A DNA stretch of 52,186 bases, counting the filler, from Catajapyx aquilonaris (taxonomy: Eukaryota), in NCBI GenBank assembly GCA_000934665.2. It is 2 parts of 2 records of this genome, joined end to end, with 100 filler letters (N's around TTAATTAATTAA, not from the genome) between each part and the next. Parts side by side here need not be neighbours in the genome. Positions count along the whole stretch, not along the records: positions 1 to 26,067 come from JYFJ02005266.1; 1 more part is not named here. The stretch is one strand, 5' to 3'. Shown here piece after piece: positions 3,401 to 50,100 of the stretch. Made by a program: the position numbers and the translations under genes. How positions within the stretch are numbered: the first letter of the stretch is position 1; every line of letters starts with the position of its first letter. Below the pieces are notes generated by a model that had not been told where the DNA came from, did not search any database, and worked only from the letters and a program-made list of their open reading frames with translations.

Positions 3401-6400
3401 GAGATACAAAGTTCATTGTACAGTGCTGGACATTAATTCCGTCTTACTGCTAGCAACATTTCCCGATGCGGCACAGGTGCACATCTAAGTGATGGAGTGC
3501 GAGTGAAGCAGTGTTTACACGTGAGCATTTTGATGAGCGAAGTCTTCGCTGAGCAATAACATTGCTGAGTAACCCGAGTAACCAATATTGCGTGAGGTGA
3601 AAGCAGGGCCTATTACTTAGGTCGCGCAACTCCCTCCCCCTATGCGTGAGCTTAGTTGCGCACCGTCTTGGTGCTGCCGTCCTCCACAGAGCACAACTTT
3701 GACGTCACGTTTGGGTGGCTGGCTCTGCGACTTTCCCTACTGACCCAGCTGCATGGTTCAGGTTGGTCCAGAAAAGCGTCCGCCAGAACGTGACCTGAAC
3801 GTGACGTGTAAGTTGTTCTCTGTGGAGCGACGCCAGTGCCAAATAGAACATTCTACCATGGGGGGGAGTGCAACTAAGCTCATGCCCTTCCCCGTATGGC
3901 TAGATAGGGAGTTGCGGGAGGCTGGGTGAAAGTAACAATCTATTTTTGCCTCAACAATATTGGTTACATGGATTACTCAGAGATGTTATCACTCTGTGAA
4001 GACTGTGCTCGTCAAATTGCTCACATGTAGAAGCGGCTTAAGAAATGGTATGCCTTGGGTGATATCACCGGCTGGAGACACGCCTTTTTCTTCATTGCTC
4101 CCAGCCGGCGACGTCACCCAAGGCCAATATTTTGATGCAGCATTTTTCCAGTTTCGCCGGCAACTTGCAATTGCTGTATGTTGCTCATAGAGTATATGAA
4201 GCACATTATAATCCCCACAAGCTACTTGAAACGTGTCATCATGCATTGTTGCAGTGGTCTACATCATTGCGAATGGGGAAGAGGGGTGCATTGGCCAAGT
4301 CCCACGTTGACGACGATTAAGATGCAGGGGAAGTAGATGAGTTTTGCTGCATTGTTTATCCCAGCAACCAGGTGGAAGTGATCCATTGCAATAATAAACG
4401 ATGAGGGTTATTTTAACCTGTAGTGATTGTTGATGGGTGTTTATAATTCGTTGCTGGGGTAAACAAAGAGTGACGTATCCTACCACCCCAGTGAACTGTA
4501 CCACCCTCATCTGACTACAGCAGTGCACAATGGCCTAGTCAGTGGAAACTGCATGTCAACAGTGTGCCGCATTTGTTGCCCATGCCGAGACCTTTATTCT
4601 TGCGTGGCACTGGCATCGTCATTCTGACATGTTCCCTTGGTCCAAGTCTTGTGATGAACCTGCTGAAAAACGTGCCCCAATTCCGCAAAAATGTGAAATA
4701 GATATATGCAAATAAAGGCGACATGTGATCAAGCGATCCGGAATATATTCTCTGGAAAAGGCCTCCCAAGGCCACATGAGCTTCCTAGAATTTTATTACA
4801 GCACGTGGGTTGAATTAAAGAGTGGGCAGACTATGACCTTGCACTTGTTCAGATAAGCTAATGGTCTTGATAAGCTGTACCAGCAATACCTTACATTCAC
4901 GATTCACATAATCACCTCTCCCCCTACATCACCCTCCCTCCCTCAAGTCCATCCCCGCTCAAAATAGCAGGTCAGCTGAGTCATGGAGGAATTCGCACAA
5001 CCTCATCTGCACCTGCCCCCACCTCACCCATTTATCCCACCCATTCCCCCACTGGTCACTTGTCCAGGTCGCATGTGAACCATGTGTTGATACTGTATCA
5101 ATGGCCACTATACCTGTCTTGATACTGGCAGAACCCCTTGCGGTACCAGGGGTCACCGCCTAACTCACCTAGAATTAGTAAACCACCAGATGACAATATT
5201 TTATGCCGTGATTGTACATAAATGCAACTTGGCCTCTAGGCTAATAACGAAAAAGGCTGTGCCCGTTGTGTTGGTGTCATCTGTATGGCTTTGGGGTGAC
5301 TGCACCAATACTGTCCATCTTGTGGCCCTGCCAGGCATGGTATGTCGCCTGTGCATGAAACTTCAGTTGATGCGGCGCTATTATGAGTTTTGAATCTGCA
5401 ACATTTACTGTCCATCTTGTGGCGCCGCAGGCCAAAGAACACTATTGTGGCTTTGCCAACCGTCAACCTGATGCTGATATATGTAATTGTGCCCTTGTGT
5501 TCGATTTTCATTACGAACGATTTGATGCACATCAGCCAATCTCGTTTGGCAACATTGTCGTTGTCCCAAACAACCTGCAGTCAGTTGACCCGCAGACAAA
5601 TGACACAGAAGCCAGTTGACCTGTGGCCAGTTGCCAGGCAGCGAGTTGACCCGACAGCCAGTTGACTTGCAGCCAGTTGTCGTAGATTCGGTTTTTTTGC
5701 TTTAGAAAATTAATTACATCTTGATTTGTCAACTGAGATTTTATTACACATGAAAACAATCATGACATAGACTACGTGAATATTTACATGACAGGTGCAA
5801 CAGTGAAGTCTAAGCCACTCCACCTTCCATATTCACTTTTCTTGAGTCAGTTGGCAGCTAATTGTTTTGGTGCGCAGGAAAATAGGCTGCGCAGGAATTG
5901 GCGATAAAATTCTTTTGGCTGTCAGGGAGGCAACTACCACATTTCATGGAGAGTTAGATCATCTTTGGCTTTGTCTAAGTAAGGTGGTATATCAAGTGGA
6001 CCAATGACCTGAGTGCAGAAGTACAAAATGACCCACCCTTCCAAGTCCTCTTTGGGAAAAGCCCCCTTTTTAAATTCCCAATTTGGCAATATTATTCACA
6101 ACAGCAGATGCAAGGAAGGGCAGATGTTTCATTTTCATTTTTTGAGCAATAGTAGAATTTGATTTATTTTTTGAGATGCCAATTGTTCATCAACTGGAAG
6201 TAATATTAAGACGTCCAAAGTCAAATCGTGACGCCATTCGAACCTATGTACCAAGTGTTGCAAAATAATTTATTTCATTAAATGTGTCTCCTAGTCAAAA
6301 ATAGGCAACTCAAAAAATCAATTGTTACATACCATTGAGTCAAAACCTTACGGAAATGCTCTAACTTTGCATCCTTGGGAAAAAACCACAAAGCTGAGAA

Positions 6401-9400
6401 TTTGAACTGCATTTTTGTACAAAACCGGTATCTTTAACCATGTGTCTCCAGGGGCCATATTTGTGATATTTTAATTATCACAAAAAACAATCCCTATGGA
6501 ATTGTAAAAAAAGGAAAGTAAGATCTAAGCGACGGATAGAAATTGCTGAAACAAGACTGGGCTGCGTAAGATCTTCACCATATGGGTAAATGTAACCCAG
6601 AGATCTTACTTCCGCATTTAACGCTTTACAAGATGGTGTTGATCAAGTCATCTTTGTGCTGGGTGTTAGTATTAGTGATTGTAGGGCTGAGAATAGTATT
6701 CCCAAGGGTGTATAGGCTGGTGTTTTGAATGATGATTGGTTAAATACTTATGACTTGCTAACAGTCTGGTTGGTTGGAGATTGGTTGTTCGGAGGGTTGT
6801 TTTTTTCTTTGTTGTTCCATTGATTAAATGAGGTGCTGGTTGGTTGATTTATTTATTGGTTAATCGATTAGTTGGGGGGCTAGGATGTTAATTGGTTAAC
6901 AGAATGGTTTATTAGACTCTGGATCTTTTAGACAATTTCTAACCTGACATCTTGTAAAACGTTAAATGCGGAAGTAAGATCTGTGGGTTACATTTACCCA
7001 TATGGTGAAGATCTTACGCAGCCCAGTCTTGTTTCAGTAATTTCTATCCGTCGCTTAGATCTTACTTTCCTTTTTTTACAATTCCATAGGGATTGTTTTT
7101 TGTGATAATTGCAGTTATTTTTTGACAAAGCAATATGAACAAGCAGTTATACTCATTAATGTATTCATGTTTAGAAGAGATGCATATTGCATTCGTTGTG
7201 TACGATTAAATTTTTTTTATAATGTTTTGAAAATGGGTATAAATAATTTGCTTACGTATCACATATTTTATTTGGAAACTAAGAAGGATGGGTTGTATCA
7301 GCCTTCAGAGAGGTAGGAGAAATATGCAGACTGCGTCCCTAATCATTATCCTCGGATCCGAATTAGTGGTTATCTGCTGGTCGTTAAAGTGTAGCCAACT
7401 ACCTTCACCCTTCACTAAAGCAGTGTAGTGGTTGTAATTCATTGAGACTCCATGGTGTAATAGGATTGCACTGCTTTTGAATTGCTTGAATCCAATTGAT
7501 ATATGGTCTCTTAGGTCGAAATCTGTTATGCTGGCGTCCGACCTTTCCCCTCCACTTTCAAGGTGCAGGATGAGGCAACCTTGTACGTTTCTTAAAATGC
7601 AGGTCTTGGCAGCTACCCCAGTGCGCTTACAAGACGGGCATGGTACTCCTTCGTCCCTCTGCTGCAACAGGATCAGAGAGAGATACCGCCGAGTTTCCTC
7701 TGCCCCTTCCCATCTGGCGTGGCAGAAGGAACACTCATATTCATCGTGGCATCGGTGAGTGCCCCAGTCTCTTAGGTGTAGGTACAGGCAAATCTTCGAA
7801 CAGGAATTGGATGAACTCTTAAGAGTCTTGCTGTTTCTCCCCGTCGAATCCTCTACCCAGAGCTCTTCTGACCCCGAATGACGAGGGAGCGACGACGTCA
7901 TTAGTGGCCGGTGCCGTTGTGTTGGATACTCTCCTCTTCGCAGGGGGACGCTGAGAAGGTCGGTGTTGTGCGCGAGCTGTTTTTAGGGCCCTTAAAACGC
8001 TGCTGCTTCCCTTCGAGGCCGAGATTCTTGTCCTGAGGTCTGGCTGCGCGAAGAGACATACCAAGGCAGCGTTGGCATAGCAAGAAACATTTGGACTTGG
8101 ATTGTCGAACCCCCTAAGTGATATTTCTGATGCGGAGGAGACTGCATGTGGCCGCTTCGTTGTTTTCCTGGGTAAGAGCAATGGAGGAGAGCAATGGAGT
8201 CTATTGTGTTCCCTCACACAGCTCACGTCGGCCTTGATGCAGCGTTCATCTAGGCGAAGGATGTATAGTCTGCCCAGCGCCTGGACTCTCGAGAGCGCGA
8301 CGTACGCCATTCCTCTTGCGAACACGGACTTGCTGAGGTCCACCAAAGCGGAATCCAGAGTGAGCCCCTGAGATTTTGTGGATGGTGATGGCGTATGCTA
8401 GTATCAGTGGAAACTAAGGGTGCAGTTTAGAGCCGCAAGTCTTCCAGGTTTCTATATATTTTCCGAATCTACTCGATGAGATGAGTCGAATGACACTATT
8501 CCTAGTGTGCGGAAATGCTTGGTGCAAGAGTAATTGAATTTTGAAATTGCAAGTAATAACAATGAATGAATGAAAATAAACAAGTGTTCCTTTGTTGAAA
8601 CAGTTTACTCCCATTGTTGAGTGAATGAATATCCATGGTAATTTTAAACGTAGTTTGGGGGTTGTGTGTTCGCAGAAATACTGTCCGCCTTGTGGTGGCG
8701 TAGATGTGGGTGTTGCGGATGTGGATGTGGCGAAGCCACAATAACGTTCGTTGGCCTGCGGCGCCACAAGACGGACAGTAAATGTTGCGGATACAGAAAC
8801 CCACAATAAGCGCCCAGCTCCGCTATCGCTCCGCAAAAACTAAAAATATCACGCACAGGCACGTGCCTGGCAGGGCCACAAGACGGACAGTACTGGTGCG
8901 GTCACACCAACGCCTCACAGATAACACCAACACAATCAGAGTGGGGCATGCCTTGAGTAAAAGCTTAGGATTCATTTTGTTGGCGGGCAAGAGGCCTCGA
9001 GCAGTGGCCCAGGAGACACCAAGCAACCTCCCTCATTACTTCCAGGGAGGCTTGCCCAATTATTCCTGATAAGCACCGATGCAATGCCTCGGCCATGGAC
9101 GCTCCTGAATGATGTTAAATTAAACTCCTACACTCATCTCGTTCTATGTCCAACGAACCAAGAACAACCGTTTATTTACATCATTCAGCATCCCTCACAG
9201 CACGTTTCCACGGAGAATCACCTGACGCAACAATGGGAGTGAACAGTCTCAACAAAGGAACACTTGTTTACTTTCATTTTATTCATTGTTATTACATGCA
9301 ATTTCAAAATTCAATTACTCGTGAACCACACATTTCCGCACACTAGGAATAGTGCCATTCGACTCAGCTCATCGAGTAGATTCAGAAAATGTATAGAAAC

Positions 9401-10942
9401 CTGCAAGATTCTTGCGGCTCTAAACTGCACCCAAGCCGAAACTGTTTCCATATATATGTTGGAGCCGAGCTCGAACTTGACAACACACCTGCAGATCGAC
9501 TTTTCGTCGTTTGGGATGTTGTCAAAGTTGATCTTGACTGACGAGATGCGGCGGTTATTCTCCATCCTCCAGCCAGACACGGTGCACATTGCGCCGTTCA
9601 CCAGTCCTTCCTGCACGTCGATGTTGTGTCGCAGCATGACGCGGCAACAACCAACTCCCAGGATGAGGACAGTCTCGAGGCCGGCCGTATACGCGAGGCG
9701 TCCTCTCGCAGACTCTCTAGGTGCTTGCTTCCCCTCTTCCAGCCAGCCTTGTTGCCTGCTGTGAGCTTGTCCTCTGCCTCCAGAAGGACAGTATCCAGGC
9801 ACGACGCACGAAGCATACGGTGGTTGAACTCGTGGCACATGTCGTTGGTTGGGACTGGGAGGAGGCACACGGGATTCAATCCTTCTGCCTTGCACCTGCT
9901 GTAGATGCTGACGCATGCTTCGTTGTTGTCTTTGGATGCCAGCGTGGTGCGGACCCTGCTTGCCAAGAGATGGAGGGTTGACTCGGAGACTATAGGCCCA
10001 CTCGCACCTCGGCCAGAAGATGCTGGTAGACGGCCTGCTTCTTATGAATAACCTCCTGATTCTTGCTATTGTACCGAGTTTTTCGGCTCGACTTACCGGA
10101 CATGAATATGAGATGTAACATGATAGGAAGAAGTCACACGTTCCAATTCGCTAACTCAATTCGTAATGTCTGTGGAGGTTAATTTTTATGCTTCGGCCTC
10201 TATAGCAATCAGTTGTGTCAGTTCTATAGAAACGAAATGGTGTGGGTTACGCGAGGTATTTGTTGATATGAGTTGCGTGGCAATTAGAAAATAAAATAAA
10301 CTTAATTTAATTGATTTTTTATTTAATTTTTTATTTAATTTTTTAATTGGCTGTGAGATGAAATAGGCTAATTTGCATAGAGGTTAGGGGGATAAGTTGG
10401 TGCAGTACGGAGGTATGTTCAAAACTTGAAGTCTCTGTGTGCAAGGATAAGGCCTGTAGAGCTCGGCAAAAAATCGTCCCAACAAGGCAAAAAAATTAAT
10501 TGTTGGAAAACTACCTGACGATCTTACTTATAGGGACTATCGTCCCTACAATATCACGTGACAGAATAATGTTTTAAAATTCATTGGTATCATCCCGATG
10601 GGAATTTTTTCACCATTGCCTTATGTAACTCTTCTAGTTTCTACTTGTATGTTCATGAGCATTTAACCACCTGCGTGAAATTTTTAATGTCATGACGTCA
10701 TAGGCCAAAGGTCTTGTTCATTGTAAACAAACACTTACTGCACGAATTTATATCGACATAGCTCCTTGCTGCATGTTTCACAATGGTAAAGTGGACATGC
10801 AGCTGCTACTTACTTTTCGCCCGGAGAAAAAATCAGAAAGATCTGTCGAGGGTAGGCAAACTCCCCTGCCACCATTGCAGCCGTAAAAAGTGTCCTTGCT
10901 CCTGATTTTCCAGGCCGAGTGCTCCAAGCTGGGGGGGGGGGN

Positions 10943-36993: not shown

Positions 36994-39323
36994 GTTCACC
37001 ATCATTCAACCTCTACTTGCCATTTGTTTGGTGGGTTTGGATGCAGTAATGGTGGCTGGTGTGAAGTTTCTTTCTATGGACTCATAAGACAATGGCACTT
37101 CATTTTATTTATTTTTCTTTTGCTCAAGAGTAGATATTCACAAAATTTAAGTGGTGTATAATCCAGTGTGGACCTGTAGAGTAGATTTTCTGGAATACAG
37201 GTTTTAACCATTTTCTCACCTTCTCCTTGCCATCCATATGGATTCTCATAGCCCACAGATTATATTGCATATATGAATGTAATTTATTACTCATCACTTG
37301 TGGAGATTGGATAATGAATCTGAATACTGGAGCTGTGATATGAGTTGTTGTTGTCAGTAATTGATTTTCTTTGGCATTGATGTCAAGAGATATATATATT
37401 TTTGGGAAGCTGTATGTGGATGAATTACTGACTTTGTGGAAACAGTTATGCCATTTCTAGGCAGTCGTGTGTTGTTGAGTAACAAGAGTTTTTGAATGTT
37501 AGGAGCTAAGGAAGTTGCGCTCCAAAATATCATATTATCAGTATGTGTTAATTGTTAAGTGCTTGTGTTATAATTTCACCAATTAAAGTGGTATGATGGA
37601 TGTAAACTTGCATATTTGACATTAACAGGGACCACCCAGAGTATTATGCAATGCTTATGATTTTGTGTTCTGTTCTTTTCGTATTAATAATATATGTTAA
37701 CTTGGAGCATTAGCCATGCAGATTTGTCATTAAGTGCCAAATTGTTGCCCTAAAATATACTCCAACAGTAACATTTTGTAACAGCTACAAAATTAATTTT
37801 GGTCTATGCCAGCAGGGAAGGCCAGTGCATCTATTGTGAGCTCATTTCTTTCATGCAAGTGATGTATGGATGAATCAAAAAATAATAAAATATATGTCTC
37901 TTAAGTTTTTATTACCTTAACTATGTGTGATTATGCCATATTACTGCATATAAAGAAAAATGCTGGTGAAATTGGGCATGACCATATCACCATTCTGGTA
38001 CAAAGCAGGGTTTTGTCTATATTTTACACGCAAAACATTGGTCAGTGTTGACGAGTCATGCCTTTCTTGGTGTTCTCCTGTAAATCACTTGCCAACTTTC
38101 ACAATAAAAGGTGCCTGCGCCTCCATCCTCGTTGATCTATCATATTATGTAATCAGCTTGGTGGCAGGAACATTGTTATATTGTTGACTTCTTTACAAAA
38201 ATTAATGGTTATTTAGGTAGCATATTAATGTACGAAGTTTCGAATGTCTTTGCAAGCAATAATTTTAATTTAATAAGTTCATGAAATTGCCTATTTTTGT
38301 ACCAATGCTACCACAGCCCAGTCCAATCAAAGTTGGCCAATGTCAAGATTTGGATTTGTTTTCAAAGGTTGTCTGCACCATAAAAGGTAAAGATCATGCA
38401 TATTGATCACCTACGAGCAGTGCAAAATATTGAAACATTGCCTGTGAGGCAATAACTCGTATGGCCATTTCATCATGTCTAAAATTTGTACTGATTTTGT
38501 AGGGAAGGAGTAAATCTCAAAAATTACCCCAATAACCAGCTAGCTGGTTCCTTCAGGGTATACTGGCCCCTTGGTCAATCCCAATTTATACCAGCATGCC
38601 AGAGTATAAGCAGTAATATGGTAATAGTACCAAATGGAAATTTAAATGAATTATAAATGAGTCCAGTAACTCTTTCACTGGGAAAGATATGTACCGTAAT
38701 TAAAAATCAATTTTTCATTACTACCATTCCACCTGCATAATTTTCTCCGTGTCATGGTTGTTGTGTACTATTTGTTTTTGAAAGTATGATAACTTATCAG
38801 ATGAAAAGCAGGGAACAAGCTTTTAGCTGTAAATTCTTTAATATTAGCTCCACTATTAATTTTTAACAAACCAAATTGACCTGTCACAATTTCATTCCAC
38901 CCTTCCCTGAGGTGCTACTTTGTATGTAATTTTTTTTAAATATGTGGGTTGTAGGGAAGAGATCCTGACTGAGAAAAATATGCAGTATTGCAACACAGTA
39001 TTTCCAATATATGGTGCTAATACTGCTAACATCTCAATTTTTCCAAAGAGCAAAGATTACAAGGCAATATTTTTGGGTGGCAAATTGGCACAAAATTTAT
39101 ATGTAATATGAGCAGGTATAATCCAAAGTGCTGTATCTATGGTTTGAATTAATTGATGAATAGCCAAATAATGACGACAAGTTCATTTCAATTTGTAATG
39201 CCCTGACTTTCTCTTTTCAATCAGTTCTAAAAGTTTCAAAACTACTCAACAGAAAAATGGTTCTCCGTCAAAATGATTCAATCTGATTTATAGGTGACTG
39301 TTGACTGAACCTCCTCATGTACA

Positions 39324-39763
39324 GTACCAGCTGAACCACACACAGGCTTTGATCCATGGTCGTGAGCCCAACCCGATTGTAGAGGAACGGCTACTATTTC
39401 ATCGCACCTTCTCCGACAAAGTGCCAAGCATCTTGGCCAACAATTTCGATGTCAGGTTGAGCGGAGGTAACTGCGGGGCTACGTATGGGCAGGGTGTGTA
39501 CTTCTCATCAAGAGCAGAGTTAGCTACACAATACTGCCATCCTGGCGATGCCCCCCAAGTTGTGTTCTGCTGCCGAGTGCTATTCTGTCAGATCATACAA
39601 GGCAGCTGCAGGCAGCTGCGCCATGTGGCGACCACCGGCAGAGTTCACATCCGGACGGGAGGCCATAGCGGCTGTGGACAAACTGGACCAGCCACAAGTG
39701 TTTGTCAAGTTTTACGACCACATGTTCTATCCTGAGTATCTCGTCAAGCTTGTGCCTGTTTAA
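39324..39763 (+). pseudogene. PARP catalytic domain, mono-ADP-ribosyltransferase type (PARP7/12/14/15-like), frameshifted
   Basis: EERLLFHRT, NNFDVRLSG, ATYGQGVYFS, QY, VFCCRVL in ORF 39301-39735; AAVDKLDQPQVFVKFYDHMFYPEYLV* in a second frame (39548-39763); CAG acceptor at 39323. Confidence 0.85.
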
Positions 39764-39956: not shown

Positions 39957-40309
39957 GAGGTGCAGTCAAAAATTACTTGAGCATAATTTTTTTAGCCATT
40001 GCGCATGATATTTACATATTTGCATTTAAAGACAGAAGCAGTTTGGTGGAGTGGTTATAGGGTCCGACTGGTAATCGGGAGGTCCTGGGTTCGAGCCCCG
40101 GGGCCGGCAACTCTAACCGTGGTTTTCTGTGGTTTCCCATGGTCCCTCCAGGAGAATTCCGGGGTTGCTTCCTAATTAAAAAGGCCACAGCTGCCTCCTT
40201 CCTTCCCTATCCCATCCCAAAAAGCAAAAAGTAAACATGTAAGCATGAGTTCCAGACAAAACAAAAATCCCCCCCTAAAGAGCCGAAAAAGGCTGATAAT
40301 GGGGTAAGA

Positions 40310-40391
<82 letters not shown>

Positions 40392-40645
40392 TGCATTTAA
40401 AGGAACATGAAATCCAACCCATGTGGGATTTTTTGATATATGTTTCAAATTTCGCGCTGACCGGGTGTCTGTTTCGCAGCACCGACACTAGCATAATGGC
40501 AGACTTCAGCAAAGCCGATCAGCGTGTTGTGATGCTATTTCTTTTTCTGCAAGGGAAAAGTGCTCCTGTGATCCTCAAAGACATGCAGGCCATATGTGGG
40601 AACTCCGTCATGCCCTTACGGACGATCCAGTGGTGGGTGGAAACA
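39957..40645 (+). mobile_element. 5' fragment of a mariner element, interrupted by a SINE
   Basis: TA-CGAGGTGCAGTCAAAAA end; transposase HTH start MADFSKADQRVVMLFLFLQGKSAPVILKDMQAICGNSVMPLRTIQWWVE. Confidence 0.8.
40032..40387 (+). mobile_element. tRNA-derived SINE (family C), full length
   Basis: TGGTGGAGTGG A box, GGTTCGAGCCC B box, long (ATT)n tail, 15-bp TSD TATTTGCATTTAAAG. Confidence 0.9.
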
Positions 40646-40868
40646 TGTTGACTCACCGCCACCCAAAAAATATGAATATAACAAATGCTGACGGTCATAA
40701 CGACATAACTGTAAACAATATTTTAAAACATAATTCAATATGCCATACAAAGACACAATCATGCAATCGCAGCAAAACACTATGACATATATTTTAAAAG
40801 TGGTTCACAAAAGAAAAGAACTTGTGACACCCATGGAGGGCAGAATTTACATAAACAAACAGTAAAAC

Positions 40869-47100: not shown

Positions 47101-50100
47101 AATACAGTAAAACTTCTATAAGTCAAATCTCCATGGGACCGGGAAAGAACTTCTAGTTATAGAAGATTCTAGTTAGAGACGTTTGGATTTTTTAAAGCAT
47201 AGAACTCTATAAGGAAGCCTACCTTTATATCCAGCGACGAAAGGTTTTCAAAACTTAAAAATAACTCTCACGATCACACGTACAATGTTCCTCGTTGTTT
47301 GGGTGTAAAAAAAACTCCGTGATGGACATTTGCCTACTCTTAGATTCAAAGATTCAATTGTCACAATTGAGTCAAACACTTCTTTTGGTACGTCTGGTAG
47401 ACAGAGATCAGAAATTGAGCCTTTCTGTACTATCGGGTTCAAATACTTTTGGCCACTTTATCCTGGTCTTGAAGCAACCCTTCACACACACACACACACA
47501 CACATGTTATAAAGTGCTATCCTTGTGAGGGTCTGGCAAAAATAAAAATTTAAAACTAACCTAACCTAACCTAACCTACAAAATACACACGAAATTTTGG
47601 TGACCTATTTTTTCACAGTAAAAAGGAGGTCTTGGTTTGATTTTCCGCCATCCTTGTGAGGACTGTGTACGTTATGAGGGCCTGAAAAAAGTCCTCGTAA
47701 GGTTTTCGGTCCTCACAAGGATAGGAAACTTGCGAAAAATATCCTCACAAGGATAGCAATGTCTGACCACACACACACACACACACATACACACGCCACC
47801 TTAACGTGGGGTATGTGCAAAGGGTTGCTTCAAGACCAGGATGTAGTGGCCAAAAGTATTTGAACCCAATATGTACATGTGGCCTACTCTCGACCCTTCG
47901 GCTGGGAAATGAGACAATTTTCCGTCCTCGCCAACATGAACTTCGACTTAGGGAGACTGAAAATGCGTTGATATCCCATCATAAGGCCTTCCCTGCACTT
48001 CGAGTTATGGAGAACTTTGAGTTATAGAAATTCGAGTTAGGGAAGTTTATTTCCTACTATTTTACATTGTGACCAACCAAGCTCATCATTTTCTTCGACT
48101 TATAGAGAACTTCGACTTAGGGAAGTTCGACTTATAGAAGTTATACTGTATTATTAGGAAAAACTTCAAATAAAAATTATTATGGTATACCTCAAAATCG
48201 ATCCCGGAAGAGATCCTTCATTGCTACTGAGGGCCTTAATGGATTTTTAATTCAAGGGTAGCACTATAGTGTAGTGATTAGTGCCTCTGAGGTCCCAAAT
48301 TCAATATGTAGTAGGTTGAGTGGAGGGTTTTTTCACGAGTTTTCTGAGGATTCTCCTATTTCCTCCCACTATCAATATTCATCACAGTGCAGACTGAATA
48401 GTCAGGTGTTGAAAGGAAGATTCCCTAAAAGGGCTCTCATGGGGTATCCTATAATTCAGGGCTATTCAACTACGAGGGTCGTTCGGAAATGATCCGCACT
48501 CGATTTTTTTTTGGCCACTACATGTACCAGCAGAGGCTGAATCACACTTGGGCTGCCTCAATGTATTCTCCACCGAGGTCGATGCACCGCTGCCACCTTC
48601 CTGGCAACTTCATGATCGTCTCACGGAACCAGTCTTTTGGTGCCCTCACCACCCAGTCATGGACAGCTCCTTGGAGCTCAGCTGCATTGGCAAATCTTCG
48701 TCCACGGAGGGGTTCCTTCATCTCGTCGAAAAGTCCGTAGTCAGAAGGTGCCAGGTCCGGGGAATAGGGTGGGTGTGACAACACAGTGTAACCCAGCTCG
48801 AGCAGTGTTTGTGTCGTTGTGCGGCTTGTGTGAGGCCGCGCGTTGTCGTGCAGGAGCAACACCTTTCGCGCCCATTTCCCCTTGCGCCGTTGCTGAATCC
48901 TCCGACGCAGACGATGCAGCAGGATGCAGTAGGTGGCACTGTTCACTGTGGACCCCTGCTCCAGCCAGTCCAGCAGAAGAATTCCCTGTGCATCCCAGAA
49001 CACTGATCCCATCCGCTTTCCGGCTGACGGGGCTGTCTTGAACTTCTTCGGCCTCGGACTGCCAACGTGTTTCCATTGCATCGACTGGCGTTTTTTCTCC
49101 GGTGTGTGGTTGGAACCAAGATTCGTCCCCAGTGACGAGTCTTGCAAAAAACCCTGCGGGATCTGCGTCATGAATTTCCAGTAACTCTCGGCACCTCTGG
49201 ACTCGCACCTCTTTCTGCTGCTGGGTGAGATCACGCGGAACCCAATGCGCGCACACTTTTTTAAAGCAAGATCCTCATGAATGATGACATGCAGGGTGGC
49301 CCGACCTAGGCCAGTGTCAAGTTCCAGTTCATCGAATGTGATTCGACGATTTTCCATGATCAAGTCGTTAACCTTCCCCACCATGACAGCTGTCCGAGAA
49401 GTCGACGGTCTGCCTACACTAACCCCCTTTTCCACTGTGGCATGGCCTGCCTTGAATGCCTGGATCCAGTCGTAAACTGTTCTGCGGCCTGGAGCCAGCA
49501 CTTCTCCACACACAGCCACAAGACGACGGTGAATGTCCGCTGCTGTCACACCGTCTTTCCACAAGAACCAGGCTGTCCACCGTTGGCCGTGATAGTCGCC
49601 CTCCATCTTGTCCACGCTAGTCGACACCCTCCCGCGTTTCAAGTGGCGCTGTCGCTGACCTGATGCGGTGATTATGGGAAACTTTTTACAGCGTGTAGGG
49701 TACAGTGGCCCCCACTGTTGAGATAAATACCAACTTCGTGCAGCCACGTATGCCGCGACAATAAATTGAGTGCGGATCATTTCCGAACGACCCTCGTAGT
49801 TTATTACAAGGTCCAGTATTTACCTTTTCTGGGCCACTGAAGGTNGACAACACTTTAGATCAACGCGGTTGCCCGGATTTACCCCCCCCCCCCCCCCCAA
49901 ATGGATTTTATATGGTACCACAGGGTTCATTTTTGAAAATATAAACATGTGCAGCAAGGGTGGAAGGGCCTATCAAGACAGGATGTATTAAGACATTTGC
50001 ACCCTTTATGATGTCCTGTACAGGCGCGTAGGCAGAATATTTTTTGGAGGGGGGCCCATTTCATAAGCACAAGGTGAACAAGCCGTAGAATTGGGGGGTT

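Follow-up and report, generated by a model that had tools for sequence, protein, structure and literature searches.

Can a rolling-circle transposon carry, within its own transposase, a deubiquitinase of the ubiquitin-specific protease (USP, peptidase C19) class, and what remains of such an enzyme in the genome of Catajapyx aquilonaris? The question is raised by the minus strand of positions 7305–10150 in a stretch of 52,186 nucleotides, filler included, from the GenBank assembly GCA_000934665.2 of this species, the whole of which is here called the window. An earlier note had described a Helitron-type PIF1 helicase fused to a USP at this locus. The segment is very probably a pseudogenised, 5′-truncated remnant of an autonomous Helitron2-like (HLE2) element equipped with a USP, which in live elements would be an active isopeptidase tethered to the transposase. 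What is left corresponds to about 30% of the coding region, at its 3′ end.

The helicase–USP junction in the window copy

Between 7305 and 10150, the minus strand contains five overlapping stop-free frames which, pieced together, yield a single protein in which the C-terminal half of a PIF1-type helicase precedes a USP. The two parts are joined in frame and without a stop in the stop-to-stop open reading frame (ORF) 7819–8397 (minus strand, 192 amino acids), where KSQGLTLD...GMAYVALSRV (helicase motifs V and VI), a 35-residue basic linker, the Cys box NPSPNVSCYANA and GEKQQDS follow one another. Motif VI and the Cys box had previously been placed in one uninterrupted ORF at 7819–8346, an interval that sits inside this frame. 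The linker, read directly from the sequence at 8101–8199, includes PRKTTKRP, and the thumb part of the USP, from the Cys box to the QQD box, occupies 7822–8100 when aligned by hmmalign to a profile of the family's USP domains.

The catalytic Cys codon lies at 8080–8082, within the Cys box. A TAA at 7819–7821, in the QQD box region, closes the junction frame, which reads on beyond it as EFIQFLFEDL; downstream of this peptide, a 1-nucleotide frame change at about 7770–7800 leads into ORF 7305–7982, which supplies CSFC, CPSC, the His box HHGVSMNYNHYTA and WLHFND and ends at a TGA (7305–7307). The His codon is found at 7428–7430 and the Asp codon at 7380–7382. The Cys box, His box and Asp/Asn position are named here as is customary for family C19, in which their roles are established. 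The fingers and palm, with two CxxC zinc-ribbon pairs, the His box and the Asp, can be assigned to 7308–7800 from the Pfam UCH match, the phmmer alignment to USP15 and the columns of the family profile. The catalytic residues of the window copy are spread over two reading frames with a stop between them; the expectation that the QQD box, two CxxC finger pairs and a His and Asp box would follow the junction and complete the catalytic set is nonetheless borne out, all of them having been located in the window.

Profile and structure databases agree on the identity of the domain. The 225-residue window fragment 7308–7982 matches Pfam UCH (PF00443) with an E-value of 3.2e-6 and 27.4 bits, the cut-off being 23.9, over profile positions 201–241 only, the His-box part. 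Compared by phmmer with all PDB sequences, it gives 16 matches at E ≤ 0.001, all of them USP catalytic domains (USP15, USP21, USP2 and USP4), the USP15 alignment covering residues 114–221. Because the UCH match lies above the cut-off and all 16 PDB matches are USPs, the resemblance exceeds chance at the level of sequence comparison, and the anticipated match to peptidase C19 profiles was obtained. In the hmmalign alignment, the window's Cys, His, Asp and second CxxC pair fall in catalytic or consensus columns of the family USP profile, and its N, C-Y-A-N and QQD in consensus columns; the first CxxC pair (CSFC) is left unaligned, yet is plain in the sequence. A SUMO-specific, USPL1-type assignment (Peptidase_C98) stays below threshold (E 0.016, 15.4 bits versus a cut-off of 27) and is given no weight as a family assignment.

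On the helicase side, the window retains the C-terminal half only of a PIF1-type enzyme of superfamily 1B (SF1B), whose motifs V and VI align with those of relatives. The first preserved segment (9769–10000, minus strand) is read in the frame of ORF 9598–10041, where tblastn aligns residues 1503–1571 of the 2160-residue relative P0072, as well as residues 60–123 of P0029, to 9990–9769. The helicase 2B (SH3-like) segment follows at 9438–9784 in the frame of ORF 9311–10150, with matches to 20 relatives at 31–56% identity (tblastn) and an alignment to P0001 and P0002; the Pfam Pif1_2B_dom is found there at E 3.9e-4 and 20.5 bits, under its 23.9-bit cut-off. Beyond an inserted element that splits the helicase (8415–9437), the segment FPLILAYAITIHK at 8366–8413, the start of motif V, shows 50–81% identity to 19 relatives (tblastn) before a +1 frameshift in an A-run at about 8375, and motifs V and VI with the C-terminal helicase helix (8200–8376) are read in ORF 7819–8397, at up to 53% identity (P0056; tblastn and alignment).

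The helicase–USP family, its catalytic residues and its fold

Is this junction peculiar to one decayed locus? A word-index search with the junction ORF returned two proteins, P0001 and P0002, that share the order of helicase 2B segment, motifs V and VI, linker, Cys box, QQ box and two CxxC pairs. In an index-free comparison of P0002 with 1.84 billion representatives (HMMER), 12,755 matches were obtained at E ≤ 0.001, mostly plain PIF1-like helicases, and among the best 150 of these many span both the helicase and the USP. The junction peptide, whose presence elsewhere the earlier note had left to be checked, is accordingly found in other copies and is not a one-off, since many relatives match both parts.

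The architecture of 22 of the longer P0002 matches was scanned with Pfam. Helitron_like_N, the HUH Rep nuclease, accompanies PIF1 in 12 of them, and DUF6570 is found in 11 of these 12 (E ≤ 1e-3), the exception being P0170, whose N-terminus is cut. UCH is detected in ten of the 12 Rep-bearing relatives, C-terminally in nine and N-terminally in P0176, with relatives reaching an E-value of 5e-22. The two others, P0054 and P0103, match the family USP profile, which was built from ten family domains and also finds a C-terminal USP in P0176. PIF1 and a USP thus occur together in each of the 12 Rep-bearing long relatives, in line with the earlier proposal of a rolling-circle family with a USP-class deubiquitinase in its transposase. 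More widely, the family profile matches 78 of the 176 collected proteins, and Pfam UCH is present in 31 of 34 aligned members.

An apurinic/apyrimidinic (AP) endonuclease (Exo_endo_phos) was detected by Pfam in none of the 22 long relatives, in none of the 34 aligned members and nowhere in the window, and for this reason the family is placed among the HLE2/Helitron2-like elements rather than the Helentrons sensu stricto. The USP ends a median of 2 residues from the protein C-terminus and occupies the place of the Helentron endonuclease. The long proteins take up 83–98% of their contigs (P0056, with 2245 residues on 7852 bp, and P0170, with 1553 residues on 4768 bp, are examples), which leaves hardly any space for a second gene or for introns. 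The whitefly Bemisia tabaci provides one member (P0105, CAH0382899.1, annotated as 'ATP-dependent DNA helicase'), which has two tandem USP domains. Two further proteins are repetitive, P0079 with three helicase–USP units at a period of 1215 residues and P0176 with a USP at each end, and in both cases the gene model seems to extend across element copies in tandem, an arrangement known for rolling-circle elements.

Three other searches add little to this picture. Word-index searches with the USP part of P0002 and with the window USP fragment against longer proteins gave no match, which is weak evidence given that the index-free search found the family. No USP was detected by tblastn with five USP queries in 80 metagenome loci, which had been picked by a generic helicase motif and matched the helicase part only. 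The closest ESM Atlas clusters belong to ordinary UCH families, of which some come from giant viruses, and serve as a lead only.

Conservation was counted on 48 near-full USP domains. They come from 45 representatives that, owing to the way in which the library was built, share less than 50% identity with one another. Of these domains, 42 retain the catalytic Cys, 46 the His and 42 an Asp or Asn, with the full triad present in 36, and the four zinc-ribbon cysteines are retained in 47, 39, 45 and 45 of the domains. Between motif VI and the USP, relatives have a linker with a median length of 110 residues, about 15% of which are lysine or arginine. The motif [LIVM]xGG occurs in the linker of one of 32 members only, and these sequences do not support a ubiquitin-like site for self-cleavage between the helicase and the USP.

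To the primary structure can be added a predicted fold. An AlphaFold2 (AF2) model of the relative P0130, built on a 34-sequence alignment, has a mean predicted local distance difference test (pLDDT) score of 83 and consists of the C-terminal part of the helicase, a disordered linker (residues 132–170, pLDDT < 50) and a well-defined domain with pLDDT > 90. Foldseek matches this model to USP35, USP21, USP46, USP2, USP30 and USP1 at E-values around 1e-18 (down to 1.2e-18), all those listed being USP catalytic domains, with target TM-scores of 0.67–0.75 and 12–17% identity. The model thus has the thumb–palm–fingers fold of a USP, for P0130 and not for the window copy. No cellular USP stands out as a donor. 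Observed in this family are its architecture, the in-frame junction, the USP fold and the conservation of the triad and of four zinc-ribbon cysteines in members that share less than 50% identity.

Decay of the window copy and its surroundings

Against this background, the window copy is dead, with seven interruptions and with neither a Rep nor the ATPase half of the helicase; the locus is a pseudogenised relic that adds nothing functional. Homology to the 22 relatives, searched by tblastn over the whole 52 kb, starts at about 9990, which corresponds to residue 1503 of the 2160-residue P0072, and the 5′ truncation falls at about 10000–10040; no other Rep or helicase pieces were found in the 52-kb window with these 22 queries at E ≤ 1e-3. 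From 5′ to 3′ of the gene, the lesions are the truncation at about 10000, a frame change at about 9770, a 5-nucleotide indel at about 9445–9452, the insertion at 8415–9437, the +1 in the A-run at about 8375, the TAA at 7819–7821 and the frame change at about 7770–7800. An earlier count of one stop and one frameshift holds for the USP part, but not for the helicase part, which has the frame change at about 9770, the 5-nucleotide indel, the +1 at about 8375 and the 5′ loss. The proposal to excise 8415–9445 was near-exact, as the inserted element spans 8415–9437 and is flanked by a 5-bp duplication.

Independent DNA of the same organism, in the form of contigs from four public DNA runs compared over 7200–10200, carries a slightly different version of the same relic. 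Position 7820 is A instead of T in all four runs, leaving no stop, and the TAA is private to the window version. The foldback insertion is absent from these contigs, one of which joins 8415 to 9453, and at the indel of about 9445–9452 they have 8 letters where the window has 3. The DNA-run version has several private indels of its own, including a 2-nucleotide loss at 9688, and at most variant sites the runs show the other letter only. It is interpreted as an allelic form, or else as a nearly identical duplicate, carried by another individual, and not as an intact master copy. One contig (X2 record 10) aligns with 0 gaps over 7671–8415, so that the frameshifts at about 8375 and 7780 are common to both versions and, being shared by independent contigs, are real rather than assembly errors. 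Since the insertion and the TAA are absent from a version that shares these frameshifts, both are younger than the death of the gene.

The inserted element is foldback- or MITE-like (miniature inverted-repeat transposable element), with long terminal inverted repeats and the target duplication GAAAC. Over its 1,023 bp (8415–9437), the inverted arms pair as 8418–8439 with 9411–9432 (100%), 8440–8570 with 9278–9408 (92%) and 8569–8622 with 9225–9278 (91%), giving terminal inverted repeats of about 200 nucleotides that are 91–100% complementary. Because it is absent from the DNA-run contigs, the copy in the helicase is either an insertion polymorphism or postdates a duplication. A second copy of this element lies at 21792–22874 (91% identity over 1087 nucleotides), such that the element, about 1.0–1.1 kb long, occurs twice in the window, and related inverted segments are present at 5266–5458. 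In its interior (about 8715–8815), word depth rises up to 62,000 versus about 500 in the flanks, indicating a very abundant repeat.

A second, unrelated foldback at 6473–7110 has 163-nucleotide arms, 98% complementary and 312 nucleotides apart, and stands some 200 bp downstream of the stop codon of the USP. The Helitron-like relic may have lost its 3′ end to this foldback. On the other side, some 900 bp upstream of the truncation point, a C-run and a (GA/TC)n microsatellite are separated by a single N (10942); another single N is found at 49845, and two runs of 44 Ns at 26068–26111 and 26124–26167.

Elsewhere in the window, further mobile-element sequences and one enzyme fragment were noted. 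A stop-free frame of 425 amino acids at 48542–49819 (minus strand) combines HTH_48, Transposase_1 and DDE_3, as in a mariner/Mos1-type transposase, and may be intact; a further HTH_48 fragment lies at 40235–40651 (plus strand). A frame at 31620–32156 (minus strand) has a DUF4817 helix-turn-helix domain (E 1.1e-7), which is typical of transposase N-termini. Finally, a frame at 39298–39735 (plus strand) matches the catalytic domain of poly(ADP-ribose) polymerase (PARP; Pfam E 1.5e-12) and could be an exon or fragment of such a gene.

Function, alternatives and known systems

What would the USP do for a live element? An intact member would encode in one long ORF DUF6570, the HUH Rep (Helitron_like_N), a PIF1-type helicase, a basic disordered linker and a compact C-terminal USP. 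In live elements, this USP would act as an isopeptidase tethered in cis to the transposase, stripping ubiquitin, or a modifier related to it, from the transposase that carries it or from host proteins present where rolling-circle transposition takes place, and such removal would shield the transposition machinery from degradation or silencing. The idea of deubiquitination in cis leans on Helentrons, for which the available parts of Erven et al. (Nat Commun 2022, PMC9741609) describe the herpes-tegument-like VTD domains as active deubiquitinases with a preference for K48, K63 and K11 linkages, propose that OTU or VTD domains prevent the degradation of proteins needed for transposition, and state that an OTU can stand beside a VTD or replace it. 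A further proposal, that the USP is a third and independently recruited HLE2 deubiquitinase class after OTU and VTD, situated in the Rep–helicase (RepHel) polypeptide with catalytic residues conserved also in arthropod members, and that its activity in cis is needed for transposition, is put forward tentatively, at slightly less than even confidence. On this proposal, the enzyme might for instance clear ubiquitin off the transposase, or off replication or chromatin factors at the donor site.

Several points weigh against an autonomous HLE2 element with an active USP as the source of the relic, and they are best taken together with the alternatives. The rolling-circle origin of the window copy, which has no Rep of its own, is suggested by homology to the fused family only; neither Helitron_like_N nor DUF6570 was found in the window by tblastn with the 22 relatives or by Pfam on the other long ORFs, and no HLE2 3′ terminal hairpin or inverted repeat is recognisable after the stop codon, where 200 nucleotides fold no better than shuffled sequences (7105–7310, z = −0.54). 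HLE2 elements otherwise have short terminal inverted repeats and a subterminal hairpin and insert between T and T; of this copy, the 5′ terminus is lost. The helicase of P0002 resembles human PIF1 (3e-17) more than the HLE1 transposase Helraiser (8.5e-8), a result that is expected for HLE2 and is not positive evidence. Four relatives among the 22 scanned (P0036, P0045, P0058 and P0117) have PIF1 and UCH without Rep in Pfam, and they may be fragments or could represent a Rep-less lineage. These four, together with the missing Rep and N-terminal half of the helicase in the window, would suit a relic derived from a Rep-less helicase–USP gene, whether a host or domesticated gene or a non-autonomous derivative, instead of from a full RepHel–USP transposase. 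That origin is nevertheless very unlikely: the four proteins lie on short contigs (3.6–6.7 kb for P0045 and P0117) and may be cut, the USP is present in 12 of the 12 Rep-bearing long relatives, and the frameshifts, stop and transposon insertion show that this is not a maintained host gene. Still harder to credit, to the point of having been refuted by the family search, the Pfam scans and the matches of the family USP profile, is the idea that a host USP exon came to lie beside a helicase pseudogene by chance or through a single capture in this lineage. Gene capture is known for Helitron-like elements, according to the available text of Li et al. (PMC11417382), but the same in-frame junction, with a homologous USP, recurs in dozens of proteins whose mutual identity is below 50%, one of them from Bemisia tabaci.

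Other points against the proposed activity concern the enzyme itself. A triad residue is missing in 12 of the 48 USP domains, and these may be dead copies or may have been put to non-catalytic use; in addition, full-text literature searches, whose coverage left out subscription journals, found no biochemical, genetic or other functional study of a Helitron USP. The fusion also differs from what is described for catalogued elements, since the HELIANO survey, in the text available (PMC11417382), has all but four of the added domains, and hence UCH too, 'encoded in different ORFs' from RepHel, whereas the USP is here fused in frame with the helicase. It might accordingly be asked whether the family USP is a self-processing protease, as suggested for the OTU proteases of Helentrons, which would cleave the Rep, Hel and EN subunits (PMC4067079, as far as its accessible text goes), or a non-catalytic ubiquitin-binding module, as the domains that lack a triad residue would allow, instead of a deubiquitinase acting on host targets. 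We consider this unlikely, as a USP-cleavable [LIVM]xGG is present in one of 32 linkers only, the triad is intact in 36 of 48 domains, the fingers, which hold ubiquitin, retain their zinc-ribbon cysteines in 39–47 of 48, and the modelled fold superposes on ubiquitin-bound USPs. A degraded HLE2 element whose live relatives carry an active, tethered USP is the reading retained here.

Read as such a degraded HLE2 element, the window relic is of use solely as evidence that this genome once hosted the family, and the residual value lies at the family level, where an in-frame, catalytically conserved USP is available and suited to the assays that established the VTD class. HLE2 rolling-circle transposons are now seen with three unrelated deubiquitinase classes, OTU, VTD and USP, of which VTD only has been assayed. 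The recurrence of three classes argues that ubiquitin removal would be a general need of HLE2 elements, as it is for herpesviruses. The USP branch, a compact and well-understood enzyme fused to a transposase, offers a handle on the ubiquitin-dependent host control that these transposons would escape.

How does the family compare with known systems? In the available portions of HELIANO (Li et al., NAR 2024, PMC11417382), UCH (PF00443) is among 20 domains 'stably included' in Helitron-like elements and is almost exclusive to HLE2, with enrichment in subgroups c and d (Table S11), which are host-specific and found mostly in lungfish and axolotl; DUF6570 is proposed there as an HLE2 marker, and the endonuclease characterizes subgroup b, the Helentrons. 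Like the UCH-bearing c and d elements of that survey, the family described here has DUF6570, Helitron_like_N, PIF1 and UCH and no endonuclease, while its one relative with a named host comes from Bemisia tabaci rather than from lungfish or axolotl. Because the family fits the HELIANO description of UCH in HLE2, the domain combination is already catalogued and the USP-bearing kind is not new. Of the earlier reservation that the family might be catalogued and characterised already, the first part holds, through UCH in HLE2 c and d, and the second does not.

With cellular USP cores (USP2, USP21, USP15/4, USP46/12, USP30 and USP35), the family shares the thumb–palm–fingers fold, the Cys box, the QQD box, the CxxC pairs, the His box and the Asp. 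It differs from them in a short core of about 270–290 residues, in an identity of 12–17%, in having no DUSP, UBL or UBP domains and in its tether to a helicase. Helraiser (PDB 7lcc) likewise combines a Rep with a PIF1-type helicase, and P0056 aligns to its residues 1024–1483 at E 1e-31, but Helraiser is an HLE1 element without DUF6570 and without a protease domain. Helinoto, a Helitron2 of the icefish Chionodraco hamatus, has reportedly been described by Capriglione et al. in 2014 under a title that speaks of 'three deubiquitinase-like domains'; if these are of the USP type, the same kind of element may already have been described there.

The closest parallel in function is provided by the VTD and OTU domains of Helentrons, which, in the accessible parts of the relevant papers (PMC9741609; Thomas et al. 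2014, PMC4067079), are likewise papain-fold deubiquitinases on an HLE2-type rolling-circle transposase and have the same proposed protective role. The domain described here is instead a USP of family C19 with zinc-ribbon fingers, and it stands at the extreme C-terminus, where Helentrons carry their AP endonuclease. The activity of VTD has been shown biochemically (PMC9741609, in the same parts), whereas that of the USP is predicted.

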